A stretch of DNA of 64,000 nt. It comes from an uncultured Bacilli bacterium (GTDB taxonomy: Bacteria; Bacillota_I; Bacilli_A; RF39; UBA660). This document shows positions 4,824 to 57,362 of this stretch, in pieces. Both the position numbers and the translations under genes were made by a program. The stretch is taken from contig CANQFE010000001.1 in assembly GCA_947598285.1 (NCBI GenBank), positions 13,705-77,704 on the forward strand, given 5' to 3'. How positions within the stretch are numbered: the first letter of the stretch is position 1; each line of letters opens with the position of its first letter. A model generated the notes under the pieces. It was given only the letters and a program-made list of their open reading frames with translations, did no database searches and was not told the origin of the DNA.

Positions 4824-5588
4824 GTGAAACTTGTGGATAATTACACAATCGCTGAAGAATTTGAATTACCATCAAAAGGGAAAGTATATTCTCAAAAAGT
4901 AAATCCAATTGTTAAATTAAAATCAATGACTACAACGCAAGAGATGCGGCGACTTTCACCATCGGAAAGGCCTTATAAAGCAATGTGTGACATTATAGAC
5001 GAGTGTTTTGTTGAAAGTCCCGGCATTTCTTCATATGATATGTGTTTAGCTGATTATCAGTATTGTCTTATTAACTTAAGAATTGCTACATATGGAACCA
5101 GATACGATATTCAAACATCTTGTCCTTATTGTGGGAATACAGTTTATGAAAAAATTGATCTTGGAAATATGGATGTTAAATATTGTGACTTACAAGATTT
5201 AAATTCATTGTTTGAATTCGAGTTACCAAGAACAAAAAAGAAGATTAAAATAAATATTCAAACTCCAAGAATTATTGACGACGTAACAGTGCAAAATAAA
5301 GCCTTACAAAAAAAGTCAAAAGGTCAAGCAATTGATTCTTCGCTGCTTTTTAATATTGTTTCGTTAATTGAAACAATTGATGGACATGAATATGATCCAA
5401 TTCAAAAAGAGGACTTTGTAAGACAGTTACCAATGATGGACACTAACTACATCGTAAAAAAAGTTAATAAGTTAGTAGAAAGTTTTGGGGTAAATATGCA
5501 AATAGAGCATACCTGTCCTACTTGTGGGTTAGATTATAATAGCACCTTTCGCATCAACGGTGAATTTTTTGGACCCAACATTGACTGA
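4824..5588 (+). CDS. zinc-ribbon protein (CPYCGN…CPTCGL); candidate tail assembly chaperone, upstream partner of an overlapping ORF pair
   Basis: Two CxxC pairs. AAGGAG ribosome-binding site at 4818-4823, so the GTG at 4833 is the more likely start. Its 3' end overlaps the 5560-5796 ORF, which lies in the +1 frame, directly upstream of the tape-measure gene. Confidence 0.45.
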   Translation: MKLVDNYTIAEEFELPSKGKVYSQKVNPIVKLKSMTTTQEMRRLSPSERPYKAMCDIIDECFVESPGISSYDMCLADYQYCLINLRIATYGTRYDIQTSCPYCGNTVYEKIDLGNMDVKYCDLQDLNSLFEFELPRTKKKIKINIQTPRIIDDVTVQNKALQKKSKGQAIDSSLLFNIVSLIETIDGHEYDPIQKEDFVRQLPMMDTNYIVKKVNKLVESFGVNMQIEHTCPTCGLDYNSTFRINGEFFGPNID

Positions 5589-33108: not shown

Positions 33109-33837
33109 ATGAAGAAAATCTTGTTATATAGTGGCGGAATGGATAGTTGGCTAATTGATAAGATATGGAAACCAGATGAAAAAGTCTATGTTAATATGCA
33201 CACTCGTTATTCTGAACAAGAAATGAAGAAATTAAAATTGCGTAATGAGAATATTACAATTCTTGATTTCCCTCTTGGGCAATTTGAAAGAGAGGATAAA
33301 ATTATTCCATTAAGAAATCTATATCTAACAATGCTTATTTGTAATTATACCGGCAATGAAGATGTAGATATTTGTCTTGGAGCAACTGCAGGAGATAGAG
33401 TTTTAGATAAATCATTTAATTTTGTAGAAAAGGTAAATGATCTACTAAATTACTTATATAGCCCACAGTGGTGGATTCCTGCTGGAAAGAAAATTAGAGT
33501 AAATATTGATTTTAAAGATAAAACAAAATCAGACCTTCTTGACATGTACTTAAAGGCTGGTGGAACATTAGAAGAAGCATTTAATAAATCATTTAGTTGC
33601 TATGAACCAGATGAAGAAGGACATGAATGTTGGTCATGCAAACCTTGTTTTAGAAAGTTTGTAACATTTGCTGATAAGGGATTTACGTTTTCAGAGGATG
33701 TTCTTAAGAAAGTAATTCCATATATTTCAAAAGAAATTATTCCTCAGATTAAGAGTGGAACATATGGACGTGGAATATCGGAAGAATCACTTATTTTATC
33801 TGTCTATGAGAAATATAAAGATTTTGACACTGTGTAA
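33109..33837 (+). CDS. queC: 7-cyano-7-deazaguanine (preQ0) synthase QueC
   Basis: PP-loop LLYSGGMDS and C-terminal zinc motif CYEPDEEGHECWSCKPC. 242 aa, with no fused glutaminase domain. Confidence 0.8.
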   Translation: MKKILLYSGGMDSWLIDKIWKPDEKVYVNMHTRYSEQEMKKLKLRNENITILDFPLGQFEREDKIIPLRNLYLTMLICNYTGNEDVDICLGATAGDRVLDKSFNFVEKVNDLLNYLYSPQWWIPAGKKIRVNIDFKDKTKSDLLDMYLKAGGTLEEAFNKSFSCYEPDEEGHECWSCKPCFRKFVTFADKGFTFSEDVLKKVIPYISKEIIPQIKSGTYGRGISEESLILSVYEKYKDFDTV

Positions 33838-33925
33838 TTAGTTGTATTTTATAGAAAAATATATTATAATATATATAGACAGGAAAACGTTATGGTTAAT
33901 TTATGAAAATGTATATGGTTAGTAT

Positions 33926-34861
33926 ATGAAATTTAATTTTTATTTTACTGGTGTAGATACCAAATCTGAAATGTTCAGATACTTAGTCGAAAATTATGGA
34001 TATTTACTGTATTCGCAATTAAATGATCGACGAAATATTATGAACACAATTGAGTACATGAAAGAGCATCCAGATAATAGAATTAAACTTTTTATTGACT
34101 CTGGTGCTTATAGTGCATGGTCTTTAGGTAAGAAGATTGATGTAGAAGAATACATTAATTTCTTAAATAAATATTCAGAATATTTTGAAATGTTTGCGTG
34201 TGTAGATAAACTACCAGGTACTCCTAAAACTGTTTCTAAACTAAGTCATGAAGAAGTAGAAGAATCGGCAAAATTGTCGTGGGAAAATTATCTGTATATG
34301 CGTTCTAAAGTAAAGGAACCCGATAAACTTCTATATACATTTCATTCAAACGAGTCTTTTGATCATCTTATTACCGCTCTACAATATGAAGATGAGCATG
34401 GAAAATTAAAAAGAATGGCAACTGGTGGTACAGCAAGTATTGAAAGATCTGATCGTAAGAATTTCTTTGATAAAGTATATAAGACTTTGAAAGAAGTTCC
34501 AAATGAAATTAAAGATATACACGCTTTTGGAGTTTCAGACTTTAAGTTAATGGAAAATTATACTGCTACCTCATCTGATTCTACTACATGGGTTCGTAGT
34601 GCTTCTTTTGGTCAGATTATGATTAACAATAAAGTTTATACGGTTTCCGATAGAAAAGAAGATGTCGGAGAAAATGAAGATCAAAAAAGTCTTTCTCATT
34701 ATGAAGCTTTAAAAACAGCGGTTGAAAAAAGAGGATTTACAGTTCAAGAATTAAAAGAAGATGTAAATAAACGTAAGCTTTTTAATATTATAGATACAAT
34801 TCAGACAGTGAAATCTTTACAATATAAACCGCAAAAAACAACAAAAGTGGATTTATTTTAA
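33926..34861 (+). CDS. dpdA: DpdA, tRNA-guanine transglycosylase-like DNA transglycosylase (inserts 7-deazaguanine base into DNA)
   Basis: TGT-family catalytic Asp motif KLFIDSGAYSAW and a second acidic motif HAFGVSDF. ~310 aa, as for phage DpdA. Flanked by queC and folE. Confidence 0.7.
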   Translation: MKFNFYFTGVDTKSEMFRYLVENYGYLLYSQLNDRRNIMNTIEYMKEHPDNRIKLFIDSGAYSAWSLGKKIDVEEYINFLNKYSEYFEMFACVDKLPGTPKTVSKLSHEEVEESAKLSWENYLYMRSKVKEPDKLLYTFHSNESFDHLITALQYEDEHGKLKRMATGGTASIERSDRKNFFDKVYKTLKEVPNEIKDIHAFGVSDFKLMENYTATSSDSTTWVRSASFGQIMINNKVYTVSDRKEDVGENEDQKSLSHYEALKTAVEKRGFTVQELKEDVNKRKLFNIIDTIQTVKSLQYKPQKTTKVDLF

Positions 34862-34879
34862 TATTAAGGATAATCAGAT

Positions 34880-35686
34880 ATGATGGTTGATTTTGTAAAA
34901 ACACAATATTTTGCTAAGTTTAAAGATCATACTCCGGAGCAGTTTGAAGTTGATTTTAACGCTTACTTAAATATTCCTCATTTCAAGGCAAACGAAAATA
35001 TTCATGAAGTATTATCGGCTAATGATAAAGAAGAAAAATATTGTCGTAGAGACATTGAAAACGAATTTATCGACGAAGATAATAATATTAAACCGGAAGT
35101 TCATTGGATTATGCGAAGTGCAACACAATATTATCTTATGAAAGCATTTAATGCAATGAAGATTGATTTAACTGATCCGAATGTAGATATTAATGCTCTA
35201 GGTAAAGGAACCCCTGGAAGAATTGCAAAAATGTGGTGTGGTAACGATCCAGATGATACAACGGAATTGGGCTCTGGAAGATGGAATAAAGAACCTGTTC
35301 TTTCTATTTTTCCAAATGATGGACAGCAAGGTATTATTTGTAAAGAAGTAGATCTAATATCCTGTTGTAGTCATCATTTTCTTCCTTTTAGTACTTTGGA
35401 TAGAGGTAGAGCAATTATTGCATATAAACCTGGAACGCATTTAATTGGGATTAGTAAATTACAACGTTTTGTTAATTGGGCTGCCAAGAGGTTTTGGTTA
35501 CAAGAAGATTTAACAAATTATCTTGGTAAGACTATTAAGAGAATTTCAGGTACAGAAGATGTCTTTATTAAAATCGAAAACGCAGTTCATGGATGTGAAC
35601 ATTATAGAGGTGCTAATTCAAAAGATGGTTCTTTAACCACAGAATATAGAAGTGGCATATTTAATGATAGTAATGTAACGTTCTAA
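34880..35686 (+). CDS. folE: GTP cyclohydrolase I (FolE) with N-terminal extension
   Basis: Collinear with FolE: RIAKMW (cf. RVAKMY); CCSHHFLPF (cf. CEHHFV); IAYKPGTHLIGISKLQRFVNWAAKR (cf. VAYIP…VIGLSKINRIV); AVHGCEHYRG (cf. AVHYCVKARG). Confidence 0.75.
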   Translation: MMVDFVKTQYFAKFKDHTPEQFEVDFNAYLNIPHFKANENIHEVLSANDKEEKYCRRDIENEFIDEDNNIKPEVHWIMRSATQYYLMKAFNAMKIDLTDPNVDINALGKGTPGRIAKMWCGNDPDDTTELGSGRWNKEPVLSIFPNDGQQGIICKEVDLISCCSHHFLPFSTLDRGRAIIAYKPGTHLIGISKLQRFVNWAAKRFWLQEDLTNYLGKTIKRISGTEDVFIKIENAVHGCEHYRGANSKDGSLTTEYRSGIFNDSNVTF

Positions 35687-36850: not shown

Positions 36851-37321
36851 TTGCTGAATAGAGGTAAAGAGTTCGAACAAAAGGTTAAACAGGACTTTTT
36901 AAAAATACCTGGTTCACACTTAGAAAGATTATATGATTCTATGGGTGGATATAAATCAATAAAAACACGTTCAGATTTTATTGGTTATATCTACCCTAAT
37001 CAATATTTTCTAGAAGTTAAGAGTGTGCATGGTAATACATTTCCTTTTACAAATTTAAAACAATATAATGGGTTATTGGAAGTATCTGGAATTCATGGAA
37101 TACGATCAGGAGTTATTATTTGGTTTGTTGACCATCAAATAGTTTGTTATGTTCCTGTTAGAACAATTAAACAAATGAAGCAAGAAGGTTTAAAATCAGT
37201 GAATGTAAAATACATAAAAGAAGGCAGCGCTTATAGAATAATTAATATTCCATCAAAAGCAAGAAAAATATTTCTAGACAGTAATTATTCTATTTTAACA
37301 ACATTGGCTGATGGAGAATAG
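36851..37321 (+). CDS. recU: RecU-like Holliday junction resolvase (PD-(D/E)xK)
   Basis: …DFIGYIYPNQYFLEVKSVHGNTFPFTNLKQYN… aligns with the B. subtilis RecU catalytic core (…[26 protein letters not shown]…). Confidence 0.6.
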   Translation: MLNRGKEFEQKVKQDFLKIPGSHLERLYDSMGGYKSIKTRSDFIGYIYPNQYFLEVKSVHGNTFPFTNLKQYNGLLEVSGIHGIRSGVIIWFVDHQIVCYVPVRTIKQMKQEGLKSVNVKYIKEGSAYRIINIPSKARKIFLDSNYSILTTLADGE

Positions 37322-38351: not shown

Positions 38352-39536
38352 ATGTCAAAAGAGGTAGGCACAGTTTCCGATATTCTAAAAAATATCAAAA
38401 AGAAGTACGGAGATAAAGTAGCAGAAATTGGTGTCGAAGATATTCGTGTAGACGGAATTCTTTCCTTAGGTAGCCCATCTTTAGATACTTGTTTATATGG
38501 TGGAATTCCAGAAGGTAGAATTTGTGAATTTACAGGTGCGGAAGGTTCAGGCAAAACTACTAACGCATTTTTAGCAGCAGCATCATATCAACGTAAAGAG
38601 TTAGAACGTAATCCAGATAATCCTCGTTATATTGTTTATATTGATCAAGAATGCACTGCGGATCCAGTGTGGGCTGAAAAAATGGGATATGACATGAGTG
38701 AGGATGCAACAGTTAAAACCATTCTTATTCGACCAGAAGGACAGTCTGCGGAAGAAGTGTTTGATATGGCACTTGATTTGTTAAAGACTGGGGATGTAGG
38801 CTTAATTATTATTGATAGTCTTGCAACACTTGTTCCACAACAAATCGTTGATGAGTCTATGGAAAAATATCAAATGGGTGGAATTGCAAAGTCTTTAACA
38901 AGATTTGCTAACACGGCTGTTGGACTACTTAGAAAATATAAAGCAACACTTATTGGTATTAATCAAGTTCGTGATAATATGACTGGATATGGAGATGCTC
39001 TTTTAACACCAGGTGGACGAGCTTGGAAACACCAGTGTTCAATGCGTCTTATGTTTAAACGTGGTACGTTTTTTGATGAAGATGGTAATGATTTAACCAA
39101 ATCAGCACAATCTCCAGCTGGACATATTATTGAAATGTATGTGCTAAAGACTAAGACCTGTAAATGGGACCGTAAGTTAGGAATGGCTCATTTAAATTAC
39201 ACGAAAGGTATTGACATTCTTCAAGATACAATTGATATGGCGGTTTACTTTGGAATGATTGATAATTCCACGCAAGGAACATTTAAGATACTTGATATTG
39301 ACACAGGAGAAGTGGCATTAGATTCTGAAGGTAACGAAATTAAAATTAGAGGTAAGAAAAATCTTAAACCATATTTTGAAGAACATAAAGAACAGTGGAA
39401 AAAAATGTATGACAAGGTGTATGATAAACTAAGCCAAAAAGAAGATTCAAACATTATTGCATTCGAAGAAATGTTAAATATTGATATAAATGAAAAACTT
39501 GGATTATCTGCGAATGCAAATCTAGAAGAAATCTAA
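38352..39536 (+). CDS. recA: RecA/UvsX-family recombinase
   Basis: Walker A FTGAEGSGKTT and RecA core motifs. 394 aa. Confidence 0.75.
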   Translation: MSKEVGTVSDILKNIKKKYGDKVAEIGVEDIRVDGILSLGSPSLDTCLYGGIPEGRICEFTGAEGSGKTTNAFLAAASYQRKELERNPDNPRYIVYIDQECTADPVWAEKMGYDMSEDATVKTILIRPEGQSAEEVFDMALDLLKTGDVGLIIIDSLATLVPQQIVDESMEKYQMGGIAKSLTRFANTAVGLLRKYKATLIGINQVRDNMTGYGDALLTPGGRAWKHQCSMRLMFKRGTFFDEDGNDLTKSAQSPAGHIIEMYVLKTKTCKWDRKLGMAHLNYTKGIDILQDTIDMAVYFGMIDNSTQGTFKILDIDTGEVALDSEGNEIKIRGKKNLKPYFEEHKEQWKKMYDKVYDKLSQKEDSNIIAFEEMLNIDINEKLGLSANANLEEI

Positions 39537-39537
39537 T

Positions 39538-40329
39538 ATGCTGGATGTTGATTCTCTTTTAATATGGCAAAAGTTTCGTTATCATTTCGAGGAAAGTACT
39601 CATACATATTATTACAATAATAAGAAAGTAAAATATTCAGTTACTCAGTTCATTAAACGCTTTTACGAGCCTTTTGATTCAGAGAAAATAAGTAAGAAAT
39701 ATGCAGAAAAACATAATTTATCACAAGAAACAGTGTTGGCGAACTGGAAAAGAATGGGAGACGTATCAGCAGTTTCTGGAACTATTATACATAGTTACAT
39801 TGAAAATATTATGCGTGGTAAATTTTTTGAACATGATTATCGTAAAGCAGAAGAATTAAATATTTTAGATGAAGTAAAAGAAAGAGTTGAAATTCTTATA
39901 CCAAAAGCTAAAGCATTTTATGATGATACACAGGATAAATTGTTTCCAATTCAATTAGAATACACGGTTGGAATAAAAGATTTTATTGCAGGTAACATAG
40001 ATATGTTATGTTGGAATGCTTATGCTAAAGAGTTTCAAATATGGGATTATAAGAATACAAAGAAGGTTGAACAAAACAACTGGTATAATCATAAGATGTT
40101 AAAATCTTTTAATTATTTATCAGACTGTAATTATAATCACTATTGTGTACAGTTAAATACATATAAAGCTATAATTAAACGAGAACTTGGAATTGATATT
40201 GGTGGATGCTATTTAGTACATTTTGATTATACAAAATTGGATAATAGTTTTGAAATTTATCCATGTGTCGATTTACAGCAAGAATGTAATGTGGAACTAG
40301 ATAAACTTATAAATAGTGTTATATTATAA
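39538..40329 (+). CDS. PD-(D/E)xK family nuclease (RecB/Cas4-like exonuclease fold)
   Basis: …FIAGNIDMLCWN…EFQIWDYKN… gives a D…(D/E)xK arrangement. C-terminal Cys-rich segment. Confidence 0.5.
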   Translation: MLDVDSLLIWQKFRYHFEESTHTYYYNNKKVKYSVTQFIKRFYEPFDSEKISKKYAEKHNLSQETVLANWKRMGDVSAVSGTIIHSYIENIMRGKFFEHDYRKAEELNILDEVKERVEILIPKAKAFYDDTQDKLFPIQLEYTVGIKDFIAGNIDMLCWNAYAKEFQIWDYKNTKKVEQNNWYNHKMLKSFNYLSDCNYNHYCVQLNTYKAIIKRELGIDIGGCYLVHFDYTKLDNSFEIYPCVDLQQECNVELDKLINSVIL

Positions 40330-40354
40330 TAATTAGATCGTAAAGAGGAAGATT

Positions 40355-40983
40355 ATGATACCTTTTCCAAATAAAAAGTACAATATCATTTATGCAGTCC
40401 ACCGTGGTCATATAATGATATAGGATGTAAGGGTTCTGCAACTGAACATTATCCAACAATGACCATTGAGGAACTAAAGCAGCTTCCTATTAATTCTGTA
40501 AATGGAGAAGGTGGTATTGCTGCGGACGATTGTGTTCTTTTTATGTGGGCTACATATCCAAATATACAAGAGGCACTTGATTTAATTAAAGCTTGGGGGT
40601 TTACATATAAAAGTGTTGCTTTTCAATGGATAAAAGAAAATAAAAATGGAAATGGATATTTTCTTGGATTGGGACATTGGACACGTGCAAATTCAGAACC
40701 GTGTTTAATTGCAGTTAAAGGGAAACCACAACGGATAAATGCAGGGATTCGTCAACTCGTATTTTCACCAATTAGAAAACATAGTGAAAAACCAGATGAA
40801 GTTCGGAACAGAATTGTTGAGCTTATGGGTGATTTACCACGGATTGAATTATTCGCACGTTCTGGTGCGATTGGATGGGATTGCTGGGGAAATGAAGCCC
40901 CTGAAAATAATATAGATTTTGAGAATTTAAAAGAAGAATTAAAGATTACTAAAAAGCATATGAGCAAGGCTTCACTGTTCTAA
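40355..40983 (+). pseudogene. MT-A70-family N6-adenine DNA methyltransferase, disrupted by a 1-nt frameshift in the (D/S)PPW motif region
   Basis: Frame A (40355-40423) encodes MIPFPNKKYNIIYAVHRGHIMI*. The frame ending at 40983 encodes …SPPWSYNDIGCKGSATEHYPTMTIEEL…LFMWATYP…GHWTRANSEPCLIAVKG…HSEKP…. Inserting one base after 40396 (GCAG^TCC) restores IIYADPPWSY. The longest ATG-initiated ORF is 40459-40983. Confidence 0.6.
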
Positions 40984-41014
40984 TAATACCTATAAGTTAA
41001 GGAGAGAAATTGAA

Positions 41015-41326
41015 ATGAATCCTAGTCCTTTAATAAATCTTGCTTTTAATATGAATAAATTACTGGGTTCAACAATTTACTATATTAAAGGTAGAGAATG
41101 TTTTACACCAGAATACTGGAAAATAATTCCAATTAAAGTAACTGAAATTAGTAGAAAATTAGATAGAAATGGGAAAGATCTTGGATGGGCTTTTATTGCT
41201 AACGGAACACGTTATAAACTTAGCTCGTTAGATAAAAAATGGTTCTTCACAAAAGATGATGCTGAAGAATTTGTTGAAAATGCAAAACAAATTATTAGAG
41301 ATGGAGTGCAGGATGAGCGTAAATAA
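41015..41326 (+). CDS. hypothetical protein
   Basis: 103 aa. Ribosome-binding site AAGGAGAG. Confidence 0.45.
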   Translation: MNPSPLINLAFNMNKLLGSTIYYIKGRECFTPEYWKIIPIKVTEISRKLDRNGKDLGWAFIANGTRYKLSSLDKKWFFTKDDAEEFVENAKQIIRDGVQDERK

Positions 41327-41669
41327 GTCGAGTACAAGATATGTTTCAAGTATTCAAGAAAAAAGAATTGCTAAGAAATTAGGTGGTTATGTTAACGCAA
41401 ATTCCGGAGCTGGAAAGTTTAATAAAGCTGACGTTGTAGTTCCATCTGCCTCAATGAGTATTGAATGTAAAACATGTTTGACGGAAAAGAATTCTTTTTC
41501 AATTAAAAAAGAATGGTTTGAGAAACACGAAAAGGAAGCATTTCAAAATAGGCTTTCTAACCATTGTATTGCTTTTAATTTCTGTTTTGACGATAATATC
41601 GATTACTATGTAATCAATGATCGTCTTATGAAATATCTTATTGAAAAACTTTCCGAAGAAAACCTGTAA
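41313..41669 (+). CDS. Hjc-like Holliday junction resolvase (archaeal-type PD-(D/E)xK)
   Basis: …IAKKLGGYVNANSGAGKFNKADVVVPSASMSIECKT… aligns with the Hjc core (…VRSAGSKKVDLVA…CIEVK…). ATG at 41313 preceded by ribosome-binding site GGAGTG. The ORF-track start at 41256 overlaps the previous gene. Confidence 0.5.
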   Translation: MSVNKSSTRYVSSIQEKRIAKKLGGYVNANSGAGKFNKADVVVPSASMSIECKTCLTEKNSFSIKKEWFEKHEKEAFQNRLSNHCIAFNFCFDDNIDYYVINDRLMKYLIEKLSEENL

Positions 41670-55592: not shown

Positions 55593-57362
55593 ATGGGACT
55601 AACTACGCAAGCATACCACTGGATTGATGGAAATGATAATAATTTTTTAAGCAGTAAATATCCAATTCGATGGATAAATAATACTGGAAGTACACGTAAA
55701 ATTATTAGTATTTCTGCAAAAATGGCTTCAGTTGATACTCGTAGTTCAACGGTAACAAAAAACAACGTAGGCGTATGTATTGAAAATGCAACCGGGGCGT
55801 ATGCCTATGGAACTGGTAATCCATATAAGGTACAGTTAGGAGCTAGAATATTTTTAGGGGATGTGTTTACCGGAACTGAATACATGTCAGAAAATGAACC
55901 AGAAATAAGCGAACGTGTTGGGGTACACCCTTGGTCGCAGGATGGAAAATCTGGTGTTACTGCTAATTATACGAATATCTCTTCTATAACAACCTGGACA
56001 TTTAAGACATTTGAAGTACGAAGTGGTTATACAGTTAAATTTTATTTTAAAGTTACTAAAAAGTCTGATAGTCTTGTTATAACTCTTGATTTTACTAACA
56101 TTGATGATGCGGCTATTATGCCACCGGTGTGTACATTAACTTATGATGCTACTGGTGGAACTGGTGCACCAGTAGATCAATCTGCAGCAAAAGGTTCATT
56201 CGTTACTATATCATCACAAATTCCAAGTAAAACTAACTATAATTTTAAAAATTGGAGTTTAAATTCCACCGGAACATCATCGTCATATACTCCAGGTCAA
56301 TCTATACAATTAGACGATAATAAAACGTTATATGCTATTTGGGAAGATGCAAAATTAGATTTAACACTTGAACAATATAGAGTTGAAAAAACTACTCGTA
56401 CAACGGATCCATGGGATCTTTGTGCAATTATAAAAGCATCAAGTACCGCAACTGACTGGTCTTATAGATACAATGATGAAACTAACTATCGACTATATTC
56501 ATCAGCGAATACGTCGTCTATAACATATCGAATTCCACAAACTGCTGGTAAGATATATCGAATTTATTTTAGAGCAAGACGTGTAAATTCAACCGTTACT
56601 GGTGAAACTAGTGATTATGCTGAATATGACTTAGTATTACCAAAAATTAACCGCGCATCGGTTAATGTAACAGGTGCAAAGCAAGGCGATTTAACATTTA
56701 TAGCAGATAAGAAGGTTCAATGGGAATTTACAGGAACACTTAATGGTGCTACGATTCGAACTGTAAATGCTATAGATGCAGACGTTCCTGCAAACACGGA
56801 AGTTACGAGATCTGTTAATTTATGGTCAAATTCAAGTCTTGATTATACATTAAGAGTTAAACGATCCGATAATATATTTCTTACGGATTCTAAACAAATT
56901 CCAGTTAGTACTGTACCACTGGAATTAAATTTAAGTATAGACTCAGGTTATCCATTAGCAACTGTAGTTAAGTTAACATGTAAAGCCCCATCTAATGTAC
57001 AAGCGGATACTTGGAATTACGATTTGTGGAAAATCACTAAAGAAAATAATATTACTACTACAGTTCGTTTGGAGACAAATACGGCTATATCTGGTGGAAC
57101 AAATGCAGAGGTAAAATTAACACGTTCTAGCTTAATTCCTGGTATTTTATATAAAGCTAAATTTTATGCTACGGACAATCGTAATATTATAGCATCGTCA
57201 AACGAAGTTACATTTATTCCTACAGGTGGAATATATGTATATGACGAAACAACACAAAAAAATGTTTTATGTGGTGTATATATCTATAATAGTACAAAAG
57301 GTAAATGGGAAATTTACAATCCATATGTATATAATAACAATGAATGGAAAATATCAAATTAG
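55593..57362 (+). CDS. tail fiber / receptor-binding-like beta-rich protein
   Basis: 589 aa, T/S/N/Y-rich with predicted beta-strand repeats. Lies in a cluster with the poly-G fiber genes. Confidence 0.45.
   Translation: MGLTTQAYHWIDGNDNNFLSSKYPIRWINNTGSTRKIISISAKMASVDTRSSTVTKNNVGVCIENATGAYAYGTGNPYKVQLGARIFLGDVFTGTEYMSENEPEISERVGVHPWSQDGKSGVTANYTNISSITTWTFKTFEVRSGYTVKFYFKVTKKSDSLVITLDFTNIDDAAIMPPVCTLTYDATGGTGAPVDQSAAKGSFVTISSQIPSKTNYNFKNWSLNSTGTSSSYTPGQSIQLDDNKTLYAIWEDAKLDLTLEQYRVEKTTRTTDPWDLCAIIKASSTATDWSYRYNDETNYRLYSSANTSSITYRIPQTAGKIYRIYFRARRVNSTVTGETSDYAEYDLVLPKINRASVNVTGAKQGDLTFIADKKVQWEFTGTLNGATIRTVNAIDADVPANTEVTRSVNLWSNSSLDYTLRVKRSDNIFLTDSKQIPVSTVPLELNLSIDSGYPLATVVKLTCKAPSNVQADTWNYDLWKITKENNITTTVRLETNTAISGGTNAEVKLTRSSLIPGILYKAKFYATDNRNIIASSNEVTFIPTGGIYVYDETTQKNVLCGVYIYNSTKGKWEIYNPYVYNNNEWKISN

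Follow-up and report, generated by a model that had tools for sequence, protein, structure and literature searches.

Amino-methyltransferases carry a motif IV of the form (D/N/S)-P-P-(Y/F/W), whose first residue acts at the amino group being modified and whose aromatic residue is stacked against the base, and class beta enzymes place this motif N-terminally (PMC7544214). M.EcoGII and its kin are prophage-borne class beta enzymes with motif IV before motif I that are often silent or conditionally expressed, and some enzymes of this type act on both DNA and RNA (PMC7544214). In Shiga toxin (Stx) phages, the enzyme M.EcoPA8orf6770P (related to M.EcoGV), together with PNB-2, has 16S rRNA of the 30S subunit as its preferred substrate, ahead of DNA; activity is lost in its DPPW-to-APPA mutant, and in Stx phage phiPA2 the gene is naturally knocked out by an insertion of IS629 (PMC10810198). 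The present analysis concerns a gene at positions 40355–40983 of a 64 000-nucleotide stretch of contig CANQFE010000001.1 (assembly GCA_947598285.1, positions 13 705 to 77 704), referred to below as the window, which is DNA of an uncultured phage with 30% GC. By descent the gene is a member of the MT-A70 family of methyltransferases, though not an intact one, and it is very probably a non-functional pseudogene produced by a real and very recent deletion of one nucleotide in the codon for the catalytic Asp.

Like the Stx phage enzyme, the window protein is a small single-domain phage MT-A70 protein with an N-terminal DPPW motif; it falls into PHROG 359 and is about 43% identical to that enzyme over 88% of its own length. 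Natural knock-outs occur in both, by IS629 in phiPA2 and by a one-nucleotide deletion, not an insertion sequence, in the window. Host and phage type differ from those of the Stx phages (30% GC, contigs up to about 137 kb), and no PNB-2-like partner was identified in the window: the 103-aa open reading frame (ORF) downstream (41015–41326) matched no family, and none of 220 loci with other MT-A70 genes had a homologue of it; no further (D/N/S)PP(Y/F/W/H) or C5-type methyltransferase motif was found in any window ORF of at least 60 aa. A partner subunit may not be required by the window enzyme. Three Stx2a phage records (H92–H94; LC616037.1, LC616076.1 and LC616050.1) matched residues 106–189 only, consistent with a phiPA2-type disruption (PMC10810198).

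METTL3 and the ciliate MTA1/AMT1 enzymes (PDB 5il1, 5k7w, 7yi8 and 8xyl) have the same fold and the same motif order at about 28% identity; they are large, with extra domains and a required degenerate partner (METTL14 or MTA9), whereas in the phage the protein, of about 209 aa, amounts to the domain alone and is broken in the window. The likeness to M.EcoGII is one of functional analogy only. The closest annotated phage homologue is the ‘MunI-like protein’ of Phage nd4 (OR777945.1; 74.7% amino acid identity), near-identical alleles of which are present in prophages of gut Clostridia. As deposited, its gene is, like that of the window, divided between two ORFs. The Phage nd4 break, however, is in a G7 tract at codons ~49–52, downstream of an intact IIYADPPWSY, and appears reversible (the tract varies), whereas the window lesion is outside any repeat and not readily reversible.

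The lesion in the motif IV codon

Two overlapping frames share the gene. Frame A runs from ATG 40355 to TAG 40421–40423 and encodes MIPFPNKKYNIIYAVHRGHIMI followed by the stop, with eight junk residues after A14. Frame B, the −1 frame, has a TAA at 40372–40374 and is then open from 40375 to 40983; its translation is KVQYHLCSPPWSYNDIG...LFMWATYP...HSEKP...ELFAR, reading SPPWSYNDIG from 40396, and its earliest ATG (40459) opens a 174-aa ORF. No intact DPPW motif is encoded, the strand YNIIYA being in frame A and PPW in frame B. The junction reads TAT-GCA-G followed directly by TC. Addition of a single A after 40397 (between GCAG and TCC) gives GCA-GAT-CCA-CCG-TGG, IIYADPPWSY and one ORF of 209 aa, and the 195 codons downstream of the lesion are all intact. 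The deletion form reads GCAGTCC at 40394–40400, where an intact form would read GCAGATCC. At the lesion site (ATCATTTATGCAGTCCACCGTGG; 40385–40410) the longest single-base run is 2.

An earlier note on this DNA, made from the letters alone, had described an MT-A70 gene split by a single-base frameshift within the DPPW motif, and the repair, the Pfam match and the DNA alignment agree with that description. Every frame and ORF that it described is present in the sequence, its repair point of ~40396 is at most one base from the actual insertion after 40397, and its statement that the break is not in a homopolymer, making slippage unlikely, fits a site with no run above two bases. Its label ‘(D/S)PPW’ might suggest that Ser is tolerated, but Ser is found at the first motif position in no family member.

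The repaired 209-aa protein was matched to the Pfam MT-A70 profile (PF05063; cut-off 23.9 bits) with 99.3 bits (E 3.1e-28) over profile positions 1–172 of 172, and the 174-aa fragment alone with 82.9 bits over 26–172. PHROG 359 (‘DNA methyltransferase’) was matched at 1.6e-86, and NCBIfam gave no model for the window methyltransferase. On these profile scores, the resemblance of the repaired protein to MT-A70 is not a matter of chance. The best sequence matches among solved structures were the METTL3 catalytic domain (E 6e-17) and the ciliate MTA1/AMT1 DNA methyltransferase, with the phage ADPPW aligned on the ADPPW of METTL3 in an alignment spanning residues 8–181. The AlphaFold model of P0002, the closest intact homologue (77% identical), is of moderate quality (pLDDT 66, pTM 0.70) and matched METTL3 and MTA1 at TM ~0.65 and E ~1e-13; its N-terminus is well defined, with a β-strand at residues 9–14 (YNIIYA) leading directly into the DPPW loop. 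The protein is thus modelled with a METTL3-like α/β fold and the class beta order, motif IV being N-terminal and the S-adenosylmethionine-binding region C-terminal. Annotated phage homologues are labelled DNA adenine methyltransferases; by analogy with the Stx phage relative and its preference for 16S rRNA, the substrate may not be DNA (PMC10810198).

DNA alignment with seven homologues gave one 1-nt gap in the window and no other indel over 132 columns. At the gap the homologues read GCx-GA(T/C)-CCx, and all seven are continuous. The first motif position is Asp in 127 of the 128 homologous proteins and at 168 of 169 loci, and Ser in none; Y9 and Y13 are invariant (128/128). Because Asp is near-universal in the homologues, the lesion was assigned as a 1-nt deletion in the Asp codon, and, given the role of the leading residue of motif IV at the target amino group, this Asp is the catalytic residue. 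Close homologues are 71–77% identical, and all of the nearest ones begin MIPFPNKKYNIIYADPPWSYND; window residues 1–14 are shared in full with the first 14 of the closest intact homologues (P0002 and P0003, for example).

The same sequence was recovered from other assemblies. Exact look-ups of both flanking proteins led to three per-run assembly contigs (ERR10663698, ERR10663701 and ERR10663699). Two of these reach across the lesion. The contig L161 (ERR10663698; window 39241–40853) and the contig L162 (ERR10663701; window 39038–40404) both contain GCAGTCC and have 0 mismatches to the window, the identical span being 1.3–1.6 kb. The exact 174-aa product (P0001) is recorded for four larger contigs of up to 136,760 bp at NCBI and ENA; since an intact gene would be called at about 209 aa, these contigs probably bear the lesion as well. 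The exact DNA pattern across the site, with 0 or 1 extra base, had no match in JGI metagenome contigs, a genome-collection scan gave distant homologues only, and an exact look-up of the 174-aa product returned no contig, though the protein is present in the collection. In a protein search (5.8 billion proteins) the fragment itself (100%) was followed directly by homologues at 77% identity. Only the broken allele has thus been sampled, and no intact sister allele.

Apart from the lesion, the gene shows no sign of wear. The repaired protein retains 72 of the 74 columns that are at least 95% conserved among the 128 homologues, and the two deviations are conservative Val/Ile swaps also seen in other homologues; with two or more such deviations in 19% of intact homologues, the window protein is within the intact range. 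The GC content at third codon positions (GC3) is 0.214, compared with 0.182 ± 0.035 in the genes of the window phage, and the overall GC content is 0.366, compared with 0.304 ± 0.025. As GC3 is near the phage value, the synonymous sites had taken on phage composition under purifying selection before the break, and as there is no decay beyond the lesion, the gene broke very recently. At the level of sequence, relaxed constraint is not yet detectable, which would fit a very recent event. The gene is a recent unitary pseudogene, with a disabling and reproducible lesion and without alternative expression signals. Genuine recent pseudogenisation had been among the options of the earlier note, and the presence of the lesion in other read sets, the missing intact sister allele and the lack of further decay all favour it.

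The following course of events is proposed. One base was deleted from GAT, the codon for the Asp of DPPW (motif IV), in the gene of a small MT-A70-type N6-adenine methyltransferase with a single domain. Translation would still initiate at ATG 40355, run out of frame after Ala14 and stop after 22 residues, and the remaining 195 codons, though intact, would no longer be translated to a useful extent. A product from the internal ATG 40459, if that were used, would miss strand one of the core sheet and all of the catalytic loop. Pairing of the upstream region of ATG 40355 with the anti-Shine–Dalgarno (anti-SD) sequence is typical of the phage (window genes, mean −6.2 kcal/mol, n = 34), and a 22-aa peptide is therefore expected from initiation there. 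Coordinates are collected in table 1.

Table 1. Positions of the lesion, reading frames and related features (window coordinates unless another contig is named).
Feature	Positions	Strand	Remarks
Shine–Dalgarno core GAGGA	40345–40349	+	pairs with anti-SD at −6.3 kcal/mol; serves the original start ATG 40355
Ancestral N-terminal coding segment	40355–40396	+	residues M1–A14, MIPFPNKKYNIIYA; original frame kept
AAAAAG	40373–40378	+	encodes K7-K8; sole slippage-prone sequence near the frame overlap, judged incidental
Lesion	40397–40398	+	A of Asp codon GAT absent between G 40397 and T 40398
Out-of-frame tail	40397–40423	+	VHRGHIMI, then TAG; with 40355–40396 forms a 22-aa ORF
Rest of ancestral gene	40399–40983	+	−1 frame, from PPW (40399–40407) to the stop
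Motif LFMWATYP	40537–40560	+	within rest of ancestral gene
Motif HSEKP	40780–40794	+	within rest of ancestral gene
Motif ELFAR	40846–40860	+	within rest of ancestral gene
174-aa ORF (P0001)	40459–40983	+	reported by gene callers; start is an internal Met of the ancestral protein
QueC-like gene	33109–33837		
DpdA/queuine tRNA-ribosyltransferase (TGT)-like gene	33926–34861		
GTP cyclohydrolase I (FolE) gene	34880–35686		
Poly-G tract of Phage nd4 (L001)	L001 3146–3152		tract also in L011, L030, L031, L091, L097, L100, L109, L156 and L158, near query residues 51–53

Alternative explanations

A gene that is in fact intact, with one base lost in base-calling or consensus, was the sequencing-indel option of the earlier note. 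In one version the error is systematic at modified GATC: the repair GCAG-A-TCC would create a GATC, genes for DNA modification are present in the phage (QueC-like, DpdA/TGT-like and FolE), and the site was judged from assembled sequences. This version was ruled out. With 136 GATC sites still present in the window (0.78 of expectation), there is no systematic loss at this motif, and other read sets show the lesion too. An artefact of any kind is very unlikely, given the two further run-level assemblies with 0 mismatches over the site, the 174-aa product called on four larger contigs, the position outside any homopolymer and a 64-kb window that is tightly packed with intact ORFs and has no other obvious broken gene. 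The option was disfavoured accordingly.

Use of the 174-aa fragment as a functional protein, for example as a catalytically dead subunit or regulator like METTL14, would explain why its ORF is intact, retains residues conserved in the family and is the product reported by gene callers; class beta methyltransferases act as dimers, some with an inactive partner (PMC7544214). Such a role is nevertheless highly improbable. ATG 40459 has no Shine–Dalgarno sequence (anti-SD pairing at +0.4 kcal/mol); a value as poor as this occurs at only 3% of the gene starts of the window phage, and 84% of window ATGs of any kind score as well or better. Its Met is no real start, corresponding to the internal residue M36 of full-length homologues (>90% conserved), and among the top 120 homologues none is N-terminally truncated at that point except P0001 itself. 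Strand 9–14 and the whole DPPW loop are absent from the fragment, as the earlier note had correctly said of the catalytic motif, and no motif of an active partner methyltransferase was found anywhere in the window. The expression of the fragment that the same note had offered as an option is disfavoured by the start signal (+0.4 versus −6.2 kcal/mol) and by the missing strand and loop. Promoter and terminator scans around the gene were uninformative, with fewer promoter-like matches than in shuffles and no terminator.

Least credible is recoding, in which a −1 shift at AAA-AAG (40373–40378) or at the lesion would yield a full-length SPPW enzyme at a low, regulated level. Frame B does open at 40375, the A-site codon of the slippage-prone Lys-Lys pair AAA-AAG, and the wider amino-methyltransferase superfamily permits Ser at the first position of motif IV (PMC7544214). 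There is, however, no X-XXY-YYZ heptamer at the lesion, and AAAAAG, 20 nt upstream of the junction, encodes a conserved KK with the same codons in the ORFs of unbroken homologues. A slip at AAAAAG would give KK-VQYHLC-SPPW and lose Y9, Y13 (both 128/128) and D15 (127/128). Frame A retains the ancestral YNIIYA perfectly, which would not be expected if frame B were the one read. The region 40379–40470 folds at −15.5 kcal/mol compared with a shuffle mean of −16.3 (z = +0.29), no Rfam match was obtained (E ≤ 1), and 0 of about 160 homologous loci are split at the position of the window lesion. Programmed −1 frameshifting was ruled out on the missing heptamer, structure and Rfam match and on the invariant residues lost from the slip product. 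A phase-variable contingency gene was likewise ruled out for the window, where there is no repeat at the break and the poly-G tract of relatives is absent (AATGGAGAAGGTGGTATT).

Several points weigh against a recent pseudogene. The lack of decay in the 195 downstream codons would also be expected if they were still expressed and selected. The lesion in the four larger contigs is deduced from a 174-aa gene call, and a minority intact allele may persist in the population. The three Logan runs are consecutively numbered and may come from one study or site; the reproducibility of the lesion is therefore one between read sets and not between unrelated populations. Phage relatives may carry an MT-A70 gene elsewhere, beyond 4 kb of the slot inspected. 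Loss of activity is argued by analogy from what is known of motif IV and from the inactive DPPW-to-APPA mutant of a phage enzyme of 43% identity.

How the deletion came to be fixed is a further matter. The enzyme may have become harmful, so that the inactivating lesion was fixed by selection and not by drift; toxicity, a new host with methyl-adenine-dependent restriction, or redundancy with the 7-deazaguanine modification of DNA may have been the cause. The family is repeatedly switched off by different means (out-of-frame poly-G tracts, IS629 in Stx phage phiPA2 (PMC10810198) and the window deletion), some Stx2a records match residues 106–189 only, the window lesion falls in the very codon of the catalytic residue, sampling gave no allele other than the broken one, and the phage encodes a 7-deazaguanine pathway. 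One lesion in one lineage, however, cannot separate selection from drift; any deletion in the first 190 codons would inactivate, so the location in the motif is not significant in itself. Selection for the knock-out was accordingly considered unlikely. It is an equally tentative generalization that small phage MT-A70 enzymes are conditionally harmful and repeatedly switched off, with the window lesion as one instance. Within such a pattern the switch-off may be reversible by poly-G in prophages of gut Clostridia and irreversible by IS629 in Stx phages or by deletion in the window, and the loss may be tied to 7-deazaguanine DNA modification or to methyl-adenine-dependent restriction in the host.

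Taken as a young pseudogene of the ordinary kind, the window gene adds one inactivated member to a family already known. The 174-aa ‘MT-A70 methyltransferase’ of gene callers would be better labelled a pseudogene or frameshifted gene, and adenine methylation by the window phage should not be assumed. A natural null allele is added to a family whose phage role and substrate (DNA or 16S rRNA) are debated, and the window lesion together with the poly-G variants of relatives suggests that these enzymes are often dispensable or costly. The native and repaired alleles form a ready isogenic pair for probing enzyme function.

Homologous loci and the poly-G tract

Among about 160 homologous loci, 12 were split, eleven of them at codons ~49–52 (...GGGIAADD...), where one sub-clade has a poly-G tract. 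This sub-clade is mostly from prophages of gut Clostridia (Oscillospiraceae or Christensenellaceae). Tracts of G9 or G12 go with an intact ORF (15 loci) and tracts of G8 or G10 with a broken one (seven loci), and G7 is mixed (four split and three intact). Alleles that are 97–99.7% identical in their flanks differ in the tract, which is G7 (Phage nd4), G8, G9 or G10, and the tract persists in alleles just 70–84% identical. Judged from these sequences, it is a candidate hypermutable, phase-variable ON/OFF switch, with poly-G sequencing error as a caveat. Phase-variable methyltransferases with poly-G tracts are known in Campylobacter, Neisseria and Moraxella. In a limited literature search, poly-G phase variation was not found described for MT-A70 genes of gut Clostridia prophages.

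In a metagenome-assembled genome of Christensenellaceae, a second MT-A70 copy is interrupted deeper in the gene, at another poly-G tract (G11; L088, about 5269–5299). Two or three tandem diverged MT-A70 paralogues, 33–56% identical to the query, are present on three contigs (L053 5452–6585, L060 2343–3953 and L072 3383–4314); such tandem copies on viral contigs recall, by analogy, the active/inactive heterodimers of eukaryotic MT-A70 enzymes. Protein identity between the 30% GC window phage and the GC-rich Phage nd4 (L001 3001–3553) is ~75% despite strong divergence of DNA composition, which indicates that this small gene has been under strong purifying selection and has spread widely by horizontal transfer.

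Phage relatives and gene neighbourhood

Megablast of 40000–41300 and of 5001–29000 against 50,697 phage records gave no match, and there is therefore no cultured relative for an orthologue comparison. The best RecA/UvsX matches, in Clostridium, Streptococcus and Bacillus phages, are ~36% identical. Phage-level relatives were found by a search with the lineage-specific exonuclease, and the slot was inspected for 4 kb on each side. Six such relatives were obtained (exonuclease 60–66% identical; contigs long enough to judge, 118–156 kb), and an MT-A70 homologue was found within 4 kb of the exonuclease in none of the six. The slot is thus variable and the methyltransferase gene in it accessory, since phages of this kind manage without the gene at this place. 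In four of the six relatives a resolvase, p113 and an HD protein follow downstream of the exonuclease (recA/exonuclease order), and in three a resolvase is upstream of the exonuclease. In the two relatives L192 (4791–5330) and L167 (4794–5321), both inspected, an unrelated gene of 175–179 aa follows the exonuclease; its product has a His-rich HHQHxNPHHWQHW motif, and the corresponding window slot (40330–41255) holds the broken MT-A70 gene and the orphan 103-aa ORF.

In the window the methyltransferase gene is between exonuclease and resolvase genes, in a replication and recombination module with DnaB, primase, PolA, clamp and clamp-loader, UvsX/RecA, exonuclease, two resolvases and SbcCD-like proteins. 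The 7-deazaguanine cluster (33109–35686) in this module suggests that the phage modifies guanine in its own DNA, in line with the mention of 7-deazaguanine modification in the earlier note. As that note proposed, such modification may have made methylation dispensable, DNA being a putative substrate of the methyltransferase. Two genes resembling Holliday-junction resolvases are present within 5 kb, at 36851–37321 and 41256–41669 (PHROG 843 and PHROG 2002). With its longest start, the resolvase ORF at 41256–41669 overlaps the 103-aa ORF by ~70 nt, and the gene call on contig L163 starts later (118 aa). Further downstream, at 55593–57362, a 589-aa protein carries a Listeria-Bacteroides repeat domain (PF09479); it may have a host-binding or surface role and could point to a Gram-positive host or one from the gut.

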